Part shown: piece after piece, positions 6,664 to 12,606 of the stretch
How the letters are laid out: each line of letters begins with the position of its first letter
How positions within the stretch are numbered: the first letter of the stretch is position 1
From: Escherichia phage vB_EcoM_PTE-Eco09
Sequence record: PQ306574.1
Direction: 5' to 3' (one strand)
DNA: 64,000 nucleotides
The notes under the pieces: generated by a model
Databases searched by the model: none
The model's input: the letters and a program-made list of their open reading frames with translations, nothing else
What the model was told of the DNA's origin: nothing
Program-made: the position numbers and the translations under genes

Positions 6664-7344
6664 ATGATCAGAAACCGTCTTCCTCCAGATCCAGATATGC
6701 GAATTAATGCTAAATCTGTGTATATGTTATATTGCATGATGAAAGCTCATATGAACGGGCGTTATGATTGCGTAAAATACAATTGGAGGATGCGGTTGTC
6801 TGATGCCGCATTCAATAAACGCAGAGATAAGTATTATTTCGCAAAATTAGCGGAAAAGTACAATCTAAGAGAATTATACTTCCTATTCCTAAGCAATCTG
6901 GTAGCTAATACCGATGCATGGGTAGGTGAAATCACCGATGTTGACGCATACGGGTTTTACATGGAGTACATCGGTAAAATCACTGATGCGGCAACACGAT
7001 TTGACGATGACATTAAAAGTCTTGTATACTTCTCAGAGAAACGCGGGGTTACTCTTAAAGAGCTAATTACATATAATCCCGCAACCGAAACTAGCGGTAT
7101 CTTTAAACTACTGCAAAATCGGATTATATCGTTTGAGTCGTTTATGTTGTTAGATAGCTTTCTAAATATAATCGACGAACACGACAAGGTAGCCAAAGAC
7201 TTGATTTGGCAAACTTATAGTGTTAAAATGAAGGCGTACAAGAAACTACTTGTTATTGACGCCGCAAAAGCAAGAGCATTATTTGTTAAAGTAGTTAAAG
7301 AGTGTAAAGAAATATCTCAATTAAAAGCCGAAACAAATAGTTGA
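6664..7344 (+). CDS. 59: helicase loader gp59
   Basis: 226-aa ORF; N-terminus (GKSVYxLYxMxKxHMNGxYDxxKYNWxMRxSDAAxxKRRDKYxFxKLxEKYxLxEL...SNLVANxDAWxG) matches recalled T4 gp59. Confidence 0.85.
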   Translation: MIRNRLPPDPDMRINAKSVYMLYCMMKAHMNGRYDCVKYNWRMRLSDAAFNKRRDKYYFAKLAEKYNLRELYFLFLSNLVANTDAWVGEITDVDAYGFYMEYIGKITDAATRFDDDIKSLVYFSEKRGVTLKELITYNPATETSGIFKLLQNRIISFESFMLLDSFLNIIDEHDKVAKDLIWQTYSVKMKAYKKLLVIDAAKARALFVKVVKECKEISQLKAETNS

Positions 7345-7368
7345 CAAGTAAATTTAAATCTGTATAAT
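7341..7368 (+). promoter_or_regulatory. sigma70-like promoter (TTGACA-16-TATAAT) upstream of gene 32
   Basis: TTGACA at 7341-7346, TATAAT at 7363-7368, followed by AT-rich leader before gene 32 (possible translational operator region). Confidence 0.5.
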
Positions 7369-7404
7369 AGTCTAGTAAATTAATCAAAAGAAGGAATAGT
7401 GAAT

Positions 7405-8373
7405 ATGTTTAAACGCCAAGATTCTTCCAAACTGCAAGCTCAACTGGCCGCACTGAAAGGTGGCAACGGTTTCTCCAAAGAAGATCCGAAAGAGTGGAAG
7501 ATTAAGACTGATGCAGCAGGTAACGGTGAAGCCCTGATTCGCTTCCTGCCGTCTAAGACAGAAGACGGTCTGCCGATTGTGAAACTGGTAAACCATTCCT
7601 TCAAAGTTAATGGCAAATGGTATTGGGAAAACTGCTCCAGCACCCACGGTGATTTTGATTCTTGCCCTGTGTGCAAATATATTAACGAAAAAGACTTGTA
7701 CAATACCGATAAAACCGAATGGCAACTGATTAAGCGTAAAGCGTCTTACTACGCAAACATTCTGGTACTGAAAGATCCTCAAGCACCAGAAAATGAAGGT
7801 AAGGTATTCAAATTCCGCTTCGGTCAGAAAATTTATGATAAGATCGTTGCAATGGTGAACGTGAATACCGATATGGGCGAAGTTCCGGTCGATGTAACTT
7901 GTGTGTTCTCTGGTGCTAACTTCCTCCTGAAAGCTAAGAAGGTTGATAAACACCAGAACTATGATGATTCTCGTTTCATGCAGCAATCACAGCTTCCGAA
8001 AATTGAAGACGAAGCATATCAGAAATATCTGATGGAAAACATGGTTGATCTGAGTGAGATTGTAGCGCCTAGCCAGTTTAAACCGTTCGATGAACTGGAA
8101 ACCAAATTTAAGAAAACTATGGGCGTTTCTATGGTAGCTGGTGCTGCGGCTTCCAGTGCTGCGGCAGCGATTAACAGCCAGCTTGACGATTTTGACGCAC
8201 AGATGAATGCATTCGATTCTGGTATGACCGCAGCTAACACTGTAGTTGGTATTAACGCAGCTAGCACGGCGTTAGATTCTTCCGCTGATGACCTGATGGC
8301 ATCTCTGGACCTGGGTGGCGGTACTTCCTCCGCTTCTGATCTGGATGATCTTGACGCTCTGTTAGGGATGTAA
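7405..8373 (+). CDS. 32: single-stranded DNA-binding protein gp32
   Basis: Strong match to recalled T4 gp32 (LPSKxEDG, VNHxFKxNGKWYxExCSSTHGDxDSCPVCxYI, [29 protein letters not shown]); ATG at 7405 preceded by SD AAGGAA. Confidence 0.95.
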
Positions 8374-8384
8374 TGAATTTTACA

Positions 8385-8408
8385 GCCTCCCTCCGGGAGG
8401 CTTTTTTA
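8385..8408 (+). terminator. intrinsic terminator after gene 32
   Basis: GCCTCCC-TCC-GGGAGGC hairpin followed by TTTTTTA. Confidence 0.7.
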
Positions 8409-8433
8409 TTGCCTAAAATTTTATGAAAAGGTG

Positions 8434-8461
8434 TTGACATGCTTATGTGGTAATGTATAAT
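8434..8461 (+). promoter_or_regulatory. early sigma70-like promoter (TTGACA-16-TATAAT) with conserved leader
   Basis: TTGACA 8434-8439, TATAAT 8456-8461, then conserved GCACACATCGAAACA leader and SD. Confidence 0.6.
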
Positions 8462-8491
8462 GCACACATCGAAACAATGGAGGATAAAAAT

Positions 8492-9706
8492 ATGTTAGTA
8501 CGTCAAGCGCATGAAATTGAATGGACTAAGGAGAAACATAATTGTAGAGCGAAAAGCCCAACAGATTTTTATGGTAAAATTTTAGAAATATGTAAAACAG
8601 AAAATTTAGTTTTTGTCGGCTTTGTTGGGGAATGGGAAGGAAACAAAACAAAAATAAAACTTATCTGCGAACATGGTCATGAATGGATATGTTCGATAGA
8701 TAAATTTGTAAGTAAAGGAACAAGATGTTCTCATAAACAATGTAAAGGTAAACGAATATCTAAAAAATTGTCTATATCCGAAACGGAATACAAAACGAGA
8801 ATTTTAGAAATATGTGAAACTGAAAATCTAATTTTCTTAGGTTTTGTTGGTGAATGGAAAGGGTGTGATACTAAAATTCGCATAAAATGCAAATACGGTC
8901 ATGAATGGGATGTATCTATATATAGCTTCACAAAAATGAATACCAGATGCCCTACATGCGCAGGACAGAACAGGACAAAAGACGAATACAAAACGAGAAT
9001 TTTAGAAATATGTGAAACTGAAAATATAATTTTCTTAGGTTTTGTTGGTGAATGGAAAGGATGCCGCACAAAAATAAAACTTAGCTGCAAACACGGTCAT
9101 GAATGGATATCTTCCATATTATGTTTTGTGTATCAAAATACTCGCTGTCCTGTATGTGTTGGTAGATTGTCTATCGACGATAGAATGATACAGATTAATC
9201 AAGTTTGCAATTCTTTAGGTTATGTAATAATTAAGATCCACGAAGAATGGAAAAACACAGAAACTAAAATTGATGTTAAATGTTTATGTGATTATATATG
9301 GACAACAACAATACATAGAGTCATACATGGGACTACAGGTTGCAGAAAGTGTGCTACACATGGATACAATACAAAAAAATCGGGGACTCTTTATATACAG
9401 AAATTAACCAACGATGATTCCTTTGTTGGTGTGAAATTTGGAATAACAAACAGAGACACGAATGAACGAATGAAAAACCAATCATCAAAGTCTAAATTCG
9501 ACCATGAGATCTTTTATGAATTGACTTTACAAGACGGTCAAAAGATCTTAGAATTAGAGAACAAGATCAAGAAAGCGATGAAAGGTAAAACTTCCTATAT
9601 CTCAAAAGAAGATATGCCGGATGGCTGGACCGAAACAGTAGCGCCGTCTGAATTGAGCACTATCATGTATATCGTAAAAACTTTTGAAAAAGAGTTGACA
9701 GCGTAA
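8492..9706 (+). CDS. protein with three tandem Cys/His zinc-ribbon-like repeats and C-terminal T5orf172/GIY-YIG-superfamily-like domain
   Basis: Repeated block YKTRILEICETENxIFLGFVGEWKGCxTKIxxxCKxGHEW...TRCPxC three times; C-terminus LYIQKL...FVGVKFGITNRDTNERMK resembles T5orf172; occupies the segG position between 32 and frd. Confidence 0.5.
   Translation: MLVRQAHEIEWTKEKHNCRAKSPTDFYGKILEICKTENLVFVGFVGEWEGNKTKIKLICEHGHEWICSIDKFVSKGTRCSHKQCKGKRISKKLSISETEYKTRILEICETENLIFLGFVGEWKGCDTKIRIKCKYGHEWDVSIYSFTKMNTRCPTCAGQNRTKDEYKTRILEICETENIIFLGFVGEWKGCRTKIKLSCKHGHEWISSILCFVYQNTRCPVCVGRLSIDDRMIQINQVCNSLGYVIIKIHEEWKNTETKIDVKCLCDYIWTTTIHRVIHGTTGCRKCATHGYNTKKSGTLYIQKLTNDDSFVGVKFGITNRDTNERMKNQSSKSKFDHEIFYELTLQDGQKILELENKIKKAMKGKTSYISKEDMPDGWTETVAPSELSTIMYIVKTFEKELTA
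8578..9150 (+). repeat. intragenic tandem repeats (about 200-225 bp units, 3 copies)
   Basis: Near-identical stretches such as ACGAGAATTTTAGAAATATGTGAAACTGAAAAT...TTTCTTAGGTTTTGTTGGTGAATGGAAAGG at about 8801 and 8999, and a diverged copy at about 8578. Confidence 0.7.
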
Positions 9707-9722
9707 CGCAATAGTGTATAAT
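9695..9722 (+). promoter_or_regulatory. early sigma70-like promoter
   Basis: TTGACA 9695-9700 (inside 3' end of upstream CDS), TATAAT 9717-9722, conserved GCACATATCGAAACA leader. Confidence 0.55.
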
Positions 9723-9751
9723 GCACATATCGAAACAACGGAGGATTAACA

Positions 9752-10081
9752 ATGTTTTTGAATGCCACCCTTTCCCAGAAAAGTGATAAAATCGAACTTC
9801 TGTATGTCATTGCTGATGTGGACGTACAACGAAGAAATATAGATTTAAAAATTCACAAATATTATACTATGAGCGAATATCATGAAATAGAGATCCCACA
9901 TAGTGTGTATCCTGCATTATTGTTAGGAAAAGGAAATCTAAGTGAATATTCTTTGAAAGTCATCAAAGATTCTAAATCAATGCTTGCTCATATGGAAAAA
10001 GATTTTCTTGATGAAGTTTCCGCGCTAGTTATTAAACTGAAAGAAGAAACAGCACCGCTTTTCATGGAACAAAAAGGTTGA
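9752..10081 (+). CDS. hypothetical protein
   Basis: 109-aa ORF with own promoter and SD GGAGGA; no recognisable domain. Confidence 0.45.
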   Translation: MFLNATLSQKSDKIELLYVIADVDVQRRNIDLKIHKYYTMSEYHEIEIPHSVYPALLLGKGNLSEYSLKVIKDSKSMLAHMEKDFLDEVSALVIKLKEETAPLFMEQKG

Positions 10082-10105
10082 CGCCGAACACAGATGATGT
10101 ATAAT
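10078..10105 (+). promoter_or_regulatory. early sigma70-like promoter
   Basis: TTGACG 10078-10083, 16-bp spacer, TATAAT 10100-10105, leader ACAAACATCGAAACA. Confidence 0.55.
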
Positions 10106-10136
10106 ACAAACATCGAAACAAAGAGAGGACTATATT

Positions 10137-10466
10137 ATGTGGACAGTAGAAAAAATCGTTGACGAATCAACCGAAATTGTCTCGTGTGGCACTATTGAAG
10201 AATGTCTTAAAGCCGCTAACCGTGAATGTATTACGGTTTATGAATCCCGTCGCGGTGATGGTAGCTTGATTCAAAGTGATTATCGTTACACCGCACATAA
10301 AATTGTATTCCGTTTCTGGGAAAACGGTGTCAATGTCGGTGTCAGCTTACTGAAAATGTGGCGTGATTATTCCGAACGCTACTATGTTTCTCCTGATGAT
10401 GGTAATGAATTTAAGACAGCAATCACAGAAGAAAATGTAAACGAAAACTATTTCAAACTGATTTGA
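10137..10466 (+). CDS. hypothetical protein
   Basis: 109-aa ORF downstream of promoter; no recognisable domain. Confidence 0.45.
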   Translation: MWTVEKIVDESTEIVSCGTIEECLKAANRECITVYESRRGDGSLIQSDYRYTAHKIVFRFWENGVNVGVSLLKMWRDYSERYYVSPDDGNEFKTAITEENVNENYFKLI

Positions 10467-10481
10467 TGGGAGATTTATATT

Positions 10482-11051
10482 ATGATTCAATGTGTATTTG
10501 CTATTGGTGACACTAAAATGTCAGATGAAAATTGGGCTTTTGGTTTTAAAGGCGGTTTACCGTGGGGGCGTCCAATTAAAAAGGACATGGAAAACTTTAA
10601 AATGCGCACTATGGGAGATGTTGATCTTGCGGCGGTTGTAATGGGACGTAATACCTTTGAAAGTCTGCCTAAAGCACTGGAAGGTCGTCTTAATGTGGTT
10701 ATTAGTACCGATGCCAGCAAGCCGACACCGAAAGCCAAAAACGGCGACCAGCCTAATGTGTATACTGGAATTGAATTAAAGGATCTGTTAAAAGTCCTGG
10801 AGAAAACGCAAGGTTTGGTAAGTGTTATCGGTGGACCTTCCCTGATTGAAAAAGCGGTTGACTTTGCGGATCGTATTGTGTTAACATATGTTCAACGAGC
10901 AGGAATTAATGATCCGTTCGAATATGATGTTGGTATCTCTAAGGAAATGATTCAGGAATTATATTTTGACTTTGCAACAAAAGAAGAACATAATTACTTC
11001 CTTGATGATTACCTGATCAGCGAACAAATTTTAGAACGTAAGAAGGCGTAA
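10482..11051 (+). CDS. frd: dihydrofolate reductase
   Basis: 189-aa ORF in frd position before td; N-terminal region resembles recalled T4 Frd / DHFR fold (GLPWGR, MGRNTFESLP, GRLNVVIS). Confidence 0.8.
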   Translation: MIQCVFAIGDTKMSDENWAFGFKGGLPWGRPIKKDMENFKMRTMGDVDLAAVVMGRNTFESLPKALEGRLNVVISTDASKPTPKAKNGDQPNVYTGIELKDLLKVLEKTQGLVSVIGGPSLIEKAVDFADRIVLTYVQRAGINDPFEYDVGISKEMIQELYFDFATKEEHNYFLDDYLISEQILERKKA

Positions 11052-11144
11052 CATGAAAATTCTGACAGATTATGAGTGCAAACATTGTGGTGAATCTTTG
11101 ATGTTTGCTGGTAGTCGGTGCTTACATTGCGGACGGGAACAATA

Positions 11145-11414
11145 ATGAAAGTCGGTATTATTCAATTATGGACGGCTACCAGTGAAAACTACGCAGTAGC
11201 CGTAGATTATTACGGTTTACAATATCTCTATGATGAAGCGAGCGCATCATGGCTTCCTGTGCAAGAAAATAGCGATATCTCAAGACCTGCTACTATATTC
11301 GACCGTGGCGTTGTCTTTATCGATATTGACGAGACAGTAGCAAAACTGCGTAAGAAAGCAATCAACAAGAAAAAGGTGATGTGGGATGAAAGAATATTTG
11401 AAACTATTGCGTGA
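11145..11414 (+). CDS. hypothetical protein (frd-td intergenic ORF)
   Basis: ORF with ATG at 11145 overlapping td start; no recognisable domain. Confidence 0.35.
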   Translation: MKVGIIQLWTATSENYAVAVDYYGLQYLYDEASASWLPVQENSDISRPATIFDRGVVFIDIDETVAKLRKKAINKKKVMWDERIFETIA

Positions 11415-12606
11415 TGTTCTCGATAATGGCTGGCCTCGTGAAGATCGAACGGGGGTAGGTACGCTCTCTAAATTCGGCGCAGAGATGCGAATTGACTTAA
11501 GCAAGGGTTTCCCATTACTGACCACTAAAAAGATGGCTACAGCCTCTGTAATTGGCGAATTGCTATGGTTTATGGAGGGATCACTTGACCGCCGTCGCTT
11601 ACAGGAAATTACACGCGGTAAGTTTGACGAAGAAGCCTTCGACATTTGGCGCGGCAACTGTCTTGATATGAAAGAAAAGAATCCTTTGCGATTCAATGGT
11701 TATAATGTCGGCAATATGTATGGTATGGCGTGGCGACGCAAACCGATTCATCCACACGGTGAAATCAAAATTAAGCGCGTTAAGAGCAAATATACACATA
11801 CATTTAAGCACCCGTGGGTAGAAGACTTTACGCCAACCAATGAAACAGAAGACCGTTTATGTGCTATCTGGCGTGGTATGCGTTATGAAGAGTTTGATTA
11901 TATTCTGGTAGCAGACCACTGGAAGACTCAATCTAATTTTGTTAATGATGCATATTGCTTGTGGGGATTCCAGGAATGGGTAGATGATGGTTATTTCGGT
12001 TATCTGCTTGATAGTGATTATCTGGGTGGGGATATTATAGCACCGGATACCACGATGTTTGTTAGTATGGACGTAGACACATCAAGCACTAAAGACGATG
12101 AAGAATATGTCTATCGCCCGAAGATTTGGGAAGACCAGTTACAAAACGTGATCGAACAAATTAAAAACAATCCAACGGATCGCCGGATCATTATTGACTC
12201 ATGGAACGTACAAGGAACACATAATGCTGTATTAGGTGTATGTCATCCTTTCGTGCAATTCTACGTCAATGAAGGTAAACTGTCTTGTATGTGGTTTCAG
12301 CGAAGCGTAGACAGCTTTTTAGGCTTGCCCTTTAACGTCGCCAGCTATGCGCTGTTAACTCACATCATAGCGAAAATGTGTGATCTTGAGGTAGGAGAAC
12401 TGATTTTCTCTGGTGGAGATACTCACATTTACAAAAACCATTTTGATCAAGTCATGGAACAGTTAAGCCGTGTTCCGTTTGATAAACCAACAATTGAGTT
12501 GCCGGAATTTAAATCTTTAGATGAGGTATTGACAAAGACTCCGAAAGACTTTAAAATTCACAACTATCAAAGCCATCCAGCGATCACCGCTCAAATGGCA
12601 GTATAA
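11386..12606 (+). CDS. td: thymidylate synthase with large in-frame insertion
   Basis: Canonical ThyA blocks (DRTGVGT, FPLLTTKK, ELLWF, DRRIIIDSWN, CHPFVQFYV, LSCMWFQRSVD, FLGLPFNVASYALL, GDTHIYKNH) but 406 aa versus about 264-286 aa for typical enzymes. Confidence 0.9.
   Translation: MKEYLKLLRDVLDNGWPREDRTGVGTLSKFGAEMRIDLSKGFPLLTTKKMATASVIGELLWFMEGSLDRRRLQEITRGKFDEEAFDIWRGNCLDMKEKNPLRFNGYNVGNMYGMAWRRKPIHPHGEIKIKRVKSKYTHTFKHPWVEDFTPTNETEDRLCAIWRGMRYEEFDYILVADHWKTQSNFVNDAYCLWGFQEWVDDGYFGYLLDSDYLGGDIIAPDTTMFVSMDVDTSSTKDDEEYVYRPKIWEDQLQNVIEQIKNNPTDRRIIIDSWNVQGTHNAVLGVCHPFVQFYVNEGKLSCMWFQRSVDSFLGLPFNVASYALLTHIIAKMCDLEVGELIFSGGDTHIYKNHFDQVMEQLSRVPFDKPTIELPEFKSLDEVLTKTPKDFKIHNYQSHPAITAQMAV

Follow-up and report, generated by a model that had tools for sequence, protein, structure and literature searches.

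The 64,000-nt stretch of Escherichia phage vB_EcoM_PTE-Eco09 analysed here (PQ306574.1; the whole stretch is referred to below as the window) comes from a Krischvirus, an RB49-like coliphage of the T4 type. Directly downstream of gene 32 it carries an intact open reading frame (ORF) for a 404-aa protein (8492..9706, + strand; ATG at 8492, TAA at 9704-9706), the coordinates of which had been given correctly in a first-pass annotation made from the DNA letters alone. The protein matches PHROG 681 'endonuclease' (E = 7e-92) and combines four N-terminal modules of the CapR type with a C-terminal nuclease domain of the GIY-YIG superfamily. It is a further member, found in a T4-type lineage and endowed with a rare four-module array, of a published class of putative homing endonucleases, and we consider it probable that the gene encodes a free-standing homing endonuclease belonging to the T5orf172 branch.

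The gene is preceded by gene 59 (6664-7344) and gene 32 (7399-8373), and is followed by two ORFs for proteins of 109 aa, orfA (9752-10081) and orfB (10137-10466), and then by frd and td. A mechanical ORF list takes the upstream GTG at 8447 as the start codon of the endonuclease gene. However, because homologues begin at the same MLVRQAHEI, the start is assigned to ATG 8492, which has a Shine-Dalgarno sequence, GGAGG, at 8479-8483, 8 nt before it. The first 23 residues (8492..8560, + strand) form a conserved motif, M..R.A.EIEW....AKSP, which is kept as far as the Salmonella prophage homologues, at 30-38% overall identity. Over 3.65 kb around the gene, identity is 99.7% to Escherichia phage FL04 and 96.5% to FL37 (megablast). 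In both of these nearest genomes the GenBank label of the gene is 'hypothetical protein', and the homologue in RB49 (RB49p240, NP_891811) is labelled 'endonuclease' in RefSeq. No paralogue of the gene was found within the 64-kb window.

Zinc-finger modules and the nuclease domain

Four stretches of the protein match the Pfam CapR homology domain PF21817 (E = 2e-31; 108.3 bits against a cut-off of 24.2), and there is a further match to DUF4379, a 'probable treble clef zinc finger' (E = 3e-7). On the + strand, module 1 (aa 24-96; 8561..8779) has the candidate metal ligands C59, H63 (or H61), C79 and C84, module 2 (aa 97-162; 8780..8977) C133, H137, C153 and C156, module 3 (aa 163-228; 8978..9175) C199, H203 (or H201), C219 and C222, and the divergent module 4 (aa 229-297; 9176..9382) C264, C266, C284 and C287. 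Each module thus has a C-x3-H or C-x-C pair followed, after about 20 residues, by a C-x2-C pair (C-x4-C in the second knuckle of module 1). The candidate ligand positions are kept in all four modules and several of them vary little or not at all across the family, C284 and C287 of module 4 being among the invariant ones.

The first-pass annotation described the protein as 'triplicated' and missed the fourth module, probably because the latter is only about 25% identical to the others, whereas modules 1-3 share 52-68% of their residues with each other. At the protein level the repeats are far beyond chance. The DNA repeats that underlie them are real, yet calling them near-identical, as was done at first, overstates the similarity: a 123-nt segment recurs in register in three copies, the outer two of which are 70% and 87% identical to the middle one (8786-8908, in module 2), the higher value being that of the copy in module 3 (8984-9106). 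The longest exact run, between modules 2 and 3, is 42 nt, and over whole modules DNA identity is 61-69%. Conservation between modules 2 and 3 is uneven along the protein: by hand count on the alignment, their first ~43 residues are 81% identical, compared with ~43% for the part comprising strand 3, helix 2 and the second knuckle. A hidden Markov model (HMM) built from the four modules of the window detects two to six copies in relatives.

In the full-length AlphaFold model the predicted local distance difference test score (pLDDT) is 88.9 and the predicted template modelling score (pTM) is 0.37, which indicates confidently modelled domains joined by flexible linkers and free in their mutual arrangement. 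Every module is modelled as a helix, three strands, a short helix and the second knuckle, with the first ligand pair in a beta-hairpin and the second at the start of the short helix. This layout is treble-clef-like, in agreement with the DUF4379 match, and the classical zinc ribbon was therefore set aside. Thus, of the zinc-ribbon-like modules proposed initially, the assignment to a zinc-finger family stands, whereas the predicted structure appears to fit a treble-clef finger better than a zinc ribbon. Taken together, the matches to the CapR homology domain and DUF4379 support the repeated Cys/His modules as predicted zinc-finger modules for DNA binding. A search for a close solved structure of the module returned only weak matches resembling the double-stranded-RNA-binding domain, phmmer of the protein against PDB sequences gave no match at E <= 1, and an NCBIfam scan of the protein produced only noise.

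The C-terminal domain (aa 298-404; 9383..9703, + strand) is modelled in isolation with a pLDDT of 95.8 and has the GIY-YIG core fold, an antiparallel three-stranded sheet with helices in the order beta1-beta2-alpha1-beta3-alpha2-alpha3. Alignments of 16, 55 and 67 homologues show no variation at Y301 (9392-9394), K315 (9434-9436), G317, R326 (9467-9469), E356 (9557-9559) and E381 (9632-9634), and the catalytic set Y301, R326 and E381 sits in the secondary-structure elements where it is expected. The second Tyr of the superfamily motif ('YIG') is absent from strand 2, which reads V-K315-F-G317-I-T with the invariant Lys at the Tyr position. Since homologues annotated with PF10544 have the same K-[IV]-G at this position, the substitution represents the T5orf172 form of the motif.

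When the C-terminal domain by itself served as the query, a word-indexed search for homologues returned only eight close matches, and an exhaustive HMMER search was then used, which collected 754 representative homologues, in all of which the domain is C-terminal. Among 66 diverse homologues that were scanned (all with E < 1e-11 to the C-terminal domain), 13 match MUG113 and five T5orf172 at E <= 1e-3, and the commonest partner domains are CapR (32), DUF4379 (27) and DUF723 (15). Using hhalign, the profile of the Krischvirus-type domain aligned with PF10544/PF13455-annotated homologues at probabilities of 95.4% (E = 1.8e-8) and 96.1% (E = 2.8e-9), a significance that arises only with the intermediate members P0063 and P0126 in the target profile; against three Vibrio-phage PF10544 domains alone there was no significant match (probability 1%). 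Four independent lines of evidence, the fold, the conserved catalytic residues, the Pfam matches among homologues and the hhalign results, support placing aa 298-404 with T5orf172/MUG113 within the GIY-YIG superfamily despite sub-threshold Pfam scores, in line with what had been suspected of this domain at the outset. Across six alleles of the gene, the last 70 codons show 89 synonymous and 50 nonsynonymous codon differences, a pattern that points to purifying selection on the nuclease domain.

Variation at the locus and repeated promoter cassettes

We compared the locus with those of ten relatives, Makalu_003, OZ035808, SAP, KFS-EC, RB49, Skers, Cognac, Makalu_001, FL38 and FL37, the flanks of which are 95-100% identical. 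The endonuclease gene is absent in four of them, Makalu_003, OZ035808, SAP and KFS-EC, which have only orfA between gene 32 and frd. The remaining six carry alleles: RB49, Skers and FL38 have the endonuclease gene alone, and FL37, Cognac and Makalu_001 have, like the window, both the endonuclease gene and orfA. Among the 40 listed megablast records, the match spans are either ~2.4 kb or ~3.1-3.7 kb, which suggests that roughly half of these records are empty at the locus. Such variable presence at a single locus beside the essential genes 32, frd and td is as expected of a homing endonuclease gene.

The alleles at this locus encode proteins of 392-541 aa with four to six modules, those of the six occupied loci just listed having four or five, and metagenomic relatives with the same nuclease domain have two or three. 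RB49p240 and its counterparts in Phi1, GEC-3S, Skers (labelled 'putative GIY-YIG nuclease'), Cognac, JEP8 and FL38 occupy the same locus directly downstream of gene 32 and have the same architecture. They share with the window allele the last ~70-90 codons (210-270 nt) at a nucleotide identity of at least 93%, whereas the proteins as wholes are only 39-51% identical, owing to their different DNA-binding arrays. Next to some of these alleles, the first small ORF downstream has been replaced. At the DNA level, the array of the window allele was found only in FL04 and FL37, two of 50,697 phage records. The FL37 allele (1395-2609 of its locus) differs from that of the window by eight nucleotides in seven codons, none of the changes being synonymous (Q159K, R161K, I179L, C211H, H290Y, K361E and L388V).

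The borders of the gene lie in repeated promoter segments. The intrinsic terminator of gene 32 (8384..8402, + strand), an 8-bp G+C-rich stem followed by a run of T, corresponds to an annotated terminator in relatives; its stem-loop has lost one nucleotide, a G of the loop region, relative to all nine aligned relatives, including FL37. Behind it lies the early sigma-70-type promoter of the endonuclease gene (8434..8461, + strand), in which TTGACA and TATAAT are separated by 16 nt and all 12 positions agree with the consensus. The homologous sites in RB49 are annotated as early promoter signals. Together, the two elements make up a terminator-plus-early-promoter composite resembling the PeSL (promoter/stem-loop) cassettes that were described, along with PeSL-mediated mini-circles, in RB49 and phi1 (Arbiol et al. 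2010; PMC2839356). A second early promoter, also 12/12 (9695..9722, + strand), serves orfA, and its -35 box TTGACA coincides with codons 402-403 (TTG ACA) of the endonuclease gene. A third copy of promoter and leader (10078..10105, + strand; 11/12) stands ahead of orfB.

The first two promoters are parts of an 82-nt direct repeat. Its left copy (8407..8488, + strand) comprises an A/T-rich upstream region, the promoter, the leader and GGAGG, and the right copy (9668..9749, + strand) takes in the final 13 codons of the endonuclease gene together with its stop codon. The copies are 1261 nt apart, the insert corresponds to exactly one 1261-bp repeat unit, and at the empty site the repeat is present once. 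The 31-nt core of the repeat occurs exactly twice in the window, with none expected by chance. Other joints fall into the promoters as well. In RB49 and Skers, the 3' end of the endonuclease gene is joined inside the promoter to an orfB-type leader, and orfA is absent. Between FL37 and the window, identity is ~100% up to ~10100 and 70-88% thereafter, and since this switch is right at the third promoter copy, it marks a recombination joint there. Among the relatives orfB itself comes in two allelic forms (70-88% vs 95-100% nucleotide identity), which do not co-vary with the presence of the endonuclease gene.

These joints match the shuffling of PeSL cassettes described for RB49 and phi1 (PMC2839356), where repeated consensus early promoters likewise bound facultative genes. 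The cargo differs, ORFans in the published cassettes and a putative mobile endonuclease gene in the window, and so does the right-hand side: the left composite includes the stem-loop at 8384-8402, whereas the right-hand copies overlap the 3' ends of coding sequences and the one at 9695-9722 is not accompanied by a terminator-like stem. An explanation in which the gene is a mere passenger, spread and lost by recombination between PeSL-like motifs, with a nuclease that is idle or does not act in homing, would account for the three promoter and leader copies bounding the endonuclease gene, orfA and orfB, for the exact repeat unit, for the deletion of orfA in RB49 and Skers, and for the drop of identity in FL37; mini-circles of the kind seen in RB49 and phi1 would offer a route. 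We nevertheless regard it as unlikely. It leaves unexplained the purifying selection on an intact catalytic domain with invariant catalytic residues, and a canonical PeSL would have a stem-loop at the right-hand repeat as well, which is missing here. Moreover, promoter-mediated recombination is compatible with homing, because double-strand breaks would stimulate it.

Two side observations concern the genes around the locus. In the Skers record (MW748999, 1-439), 'putative HNH homing endonuclease' is the label given to the gene that stands where the other relatives have gene 59, the helicase loader; this is probably a mis-annotation. Further downstream in the window, the thymidylate synthase ORF (11386-12606, + strand) encodes 406 aa and matches Pfam Thymidylat_synt in two stretches, the best-scoring of which aligns aa 250-406 with profile positions 110-266. 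From this alignment, an in-frame insertion of ~140 aa is deduced midway along the enzyme, and the inserted part belongs to no Pfam family. In RB49 and its relatives the annotated td gene is about as long.

Relationship to described systems

The architecture had at first been taken to be unusual, whereas it is that of the published class of putative homing endonucleases with T5orf172 and CapR domains; the window protein is a new example rather than a new kind. Netter (2021; PMC8096241) reported that the satellite protein CapR binds DNA, that its conserved Cys pairs are required and that it is similar to the N-terminal part of ICP1 proteins ending in a T5orf172 domain. Barth, Dunham and Seed (2023; PMC10448857) then described putative homing endonucleases that form a class of their own, in which CapR, DUF723 or DUF4379 zinc-finger modules recur as 'beads on a string'. 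These are encoded by degenerate nucleotide repeats that recombine, undergo domain swapping, vary in presence and lie near essential genes. In tblastn searches, the window protein directly matches ICP1 ORF174 (gp174), a named T5orf172/CapR homing endonuclease gene of that study, and its family is found in 621 phage records.

As in the window, ICP1 gp174, gp165 and others (PMC8096241, PMC10448857) have N-terminal zinc-finger repeats and a C-terminal T5orf172-type nuclease, and the ICP1-type class shares the degenerate nucleotide repeats, the number of modules varying between alleles, the variable presence between close isolates and the essential neighbours. There are three differences. The window phage is a T4-type Krischvirus and stands outside the enriched lineages named in PMC10448857; no RB49 or Krischvirus entry was found in its text or in those of its supplementary files that were searched. 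The window nuclease domain is a divergent sub-branch (motif G-W/Y-T-E-T), which stays below the Pfam cut-offs. Finally, the order of ligands is C-x3-H or C-x-C and then C-x2-C, whereas PMC10448857 describes CxxC...CxC. Homologues of the same architecture, all full-length nucleases, also occur in prophages of Salmonella and E. coli. One of them, a 348-aa protein of Salmonella enterica (contigs L012, L013 and L014; 8001-9047) with three CapR modules and the same nuclease domain, is encoded at the edge of an integrated prophage by the csg curli operon, directly beside a large serine recombinase; nearby are a second gene with a faint match to MUG113 (320 aa) and a UvsW-like helicase.

T4 SegG offers another comparison, because it too is encoded by a free-standing gene of the GIY-YIG superfamily that adjoins gene 32 in a T4-type genome and is associated with an early or middle promoter, and because the expected action is the same, a cut in the competitor genome followed by co-conversion of flanking markers. 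However, the window gene does not occupy the slot of segG, as had been proposed. In T4 the order is 59 - segG - 32 - frd.3 - frd.2 - frd.1 - frd - td, so that segG lies on the opposite flank of gene 32, whereas the window gene lies between gene 32 and the small ORFs proximal to frd. As the first-pass annotation recognised, the order of domains is reversed relative to Seg proteins: SegG has GIY...YIG at its N-terminus (residues 3-24) and a Seg-type DNA-binding region at its C-terminus, compared with the zinc-finger repeats and the C-terminal nuclease of the window protein. BLASTP revealed no similarity between the two proteins (E = 2.2). Given the opposite side of gene 32 and this E-value, orthology to SegG was rejected, and the reversed domain order together with the lack of sequence similarity and of a PF01541 match places the protein outside the T4 Seg family (SegA-G). 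Overall, the observation from which this analysis started is confirmed in part and its interpretation is supported in part.

PLE CapR, the repressor of the ICP1 capsid operon, belongs to the same module family (PF21817) and needs its Cys pairs for DNA binding. It differs from the window protein in being a satellite-encoded repressor with a single binding region and no nuclease domain.

Probable homing and its alternatives

The variable presence of the gene, the variation of module number between alleles, the essential neighbours (32, frd and td) and the match to ICP1 ORF174 together argue for homing as the probable function, which is inferred, as are zinc binding, DNA binding, cleavage and the target site. 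In the scenario we favour, the gene's own consensus sigma-70 promoter would drive its early transcription. A long specific DNA site would be bound by the four CapR-type Zn(Cys/His)4 modules, which are strung along the N-terminal part like 'beads on a string' and would contribute one sub-site each, and the C-terminal GIY-YIG-fold domain would cut nearby DNA by means of Tyr301, Arg326 and the presumably metal-binding Glu381, Lys315 standing in for the second Tyr as in T5orf172 proteins. According to work cited in PMC10448857, the nuclease activity of the T5orf172 domain in Odn depends on the aligned Glu. In a mixed infection with a relative that lacks the gene or carries another allele, the cut would be made in or near the gene 32/frd neighbourhood of the competitor, and recombinational repair from the endonuclease-carrying genome would copy the gene and flanking markers into it. 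The promoter and leader cassettes on either side may provide homology for this repair and keep the downstream gene expressed after insertion.

Several points weigh against this scenario. The Pfam evidence for the nuclease is below threshold: with the full protein MUG113 (PF13455) scores only 15.8 bits (E = 0.022) against a cut-off of 22.3, neither PF10544 (at E <= 1) nor PF01541 is matched, and the isolated C-terminal domain has no Pfam match. Homing of the whole class, ICP1 members included, is stated in PMC10448857 to be experimentally unverified. Within the ten loci, no polymorphism of gene 32, the intergenic region or orfB co-varies with the presence of the gene, and no signature of a target site or of immunity was seen in the flanks (100-nt identity bins over 7100-11300 and an alignment of the intergenic region). 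The exclusively nonsynonymous differences from FL37 hint at relaxed constraint on the binding array, or at diversification, their number being too small for significance. Finally, since the junctions lie inside repeated promoters, nuclease activity may not be needed for the cassette to move by PeSL-type recombination.

Alternatively, the protein might be a domesticated weapon like Odn, directed against a satellite, a prophage, a competing phage or a host sequence that is read by the CapR array. Such domestication of T5orf172 nucleases is described for ICP1 and is probable for coliphages (PMC10448857), homologues of the same architecture reside in prophages of Salmonella and E. coli, and the restriction of the array to two phage records points to rapid turnover. 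However, the DNA-binding domain of an Odn-type protein shares nucleotide-level homology with the element it targets, and no bacterial or satellite DNA matching the array was found in the collection of 50,697 phage records. The bacterial homologues, being full-length nucleases, are not candidate targets, and presence or absence at a fixed locus by essential genes is the classical signature of homing endonuclease genes. We therefore consider such a role quite unlikely.

Least plausible, and very unlikely in our judgement, is a nuclease-inactive regulator comparable to PLE CapR, perhaps acting on the repeated early promoters: CapR is indeed a repressor that binds a -35 region (PMC8096241), I-TevI, as noted in the discussion of the same paper, autorepresses its own expression, and near-identical promoters flank the gene, but CapR has no nuclease domain, whereas here no part of the protein is more conserved than this domain, which is under purifying selection and has invariant catalytic Tyr, Arg and Glu.

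A more far-reaching interpretation, which we offer tentatively and as a doubtful one, is that the Krischvirus gene-32 locus represents a natural 'zinc-finger-nuclease' series, in which one conserved T5orf172 nuclease is combined with two to six CapR modules, each reading its own sub-site, and specificity is re-programmed by duplication, loss and exchange of modules. The uneven identity between modules 2 and 3, 81% vs ~43%, would then mark the specificity-determining surface. In a bolder form of the same idea, the array would recognise the repeated early-promoter cassettes, linking cutting to promoter-mediated gene shuffling.

The results do not change any concept, since the architecture, the repeats and the proposed mechanism have already been published. 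They support annotating the gene as a putative homing endonuclease of the T5orf172 type with four zinc-finger modules of the CapR family, and they place a class known mainly from ICP1, T5-like, Aeromonas and Vibrio phages beside gene 32 of T4-type Krischviruses. In these easily grown coliphages, alleles with four to six modules on one nuclease domain exist side by side with empty sites, and this series would be well suited to testing homing and modular DNA recognition experimentally for the first time in the family.

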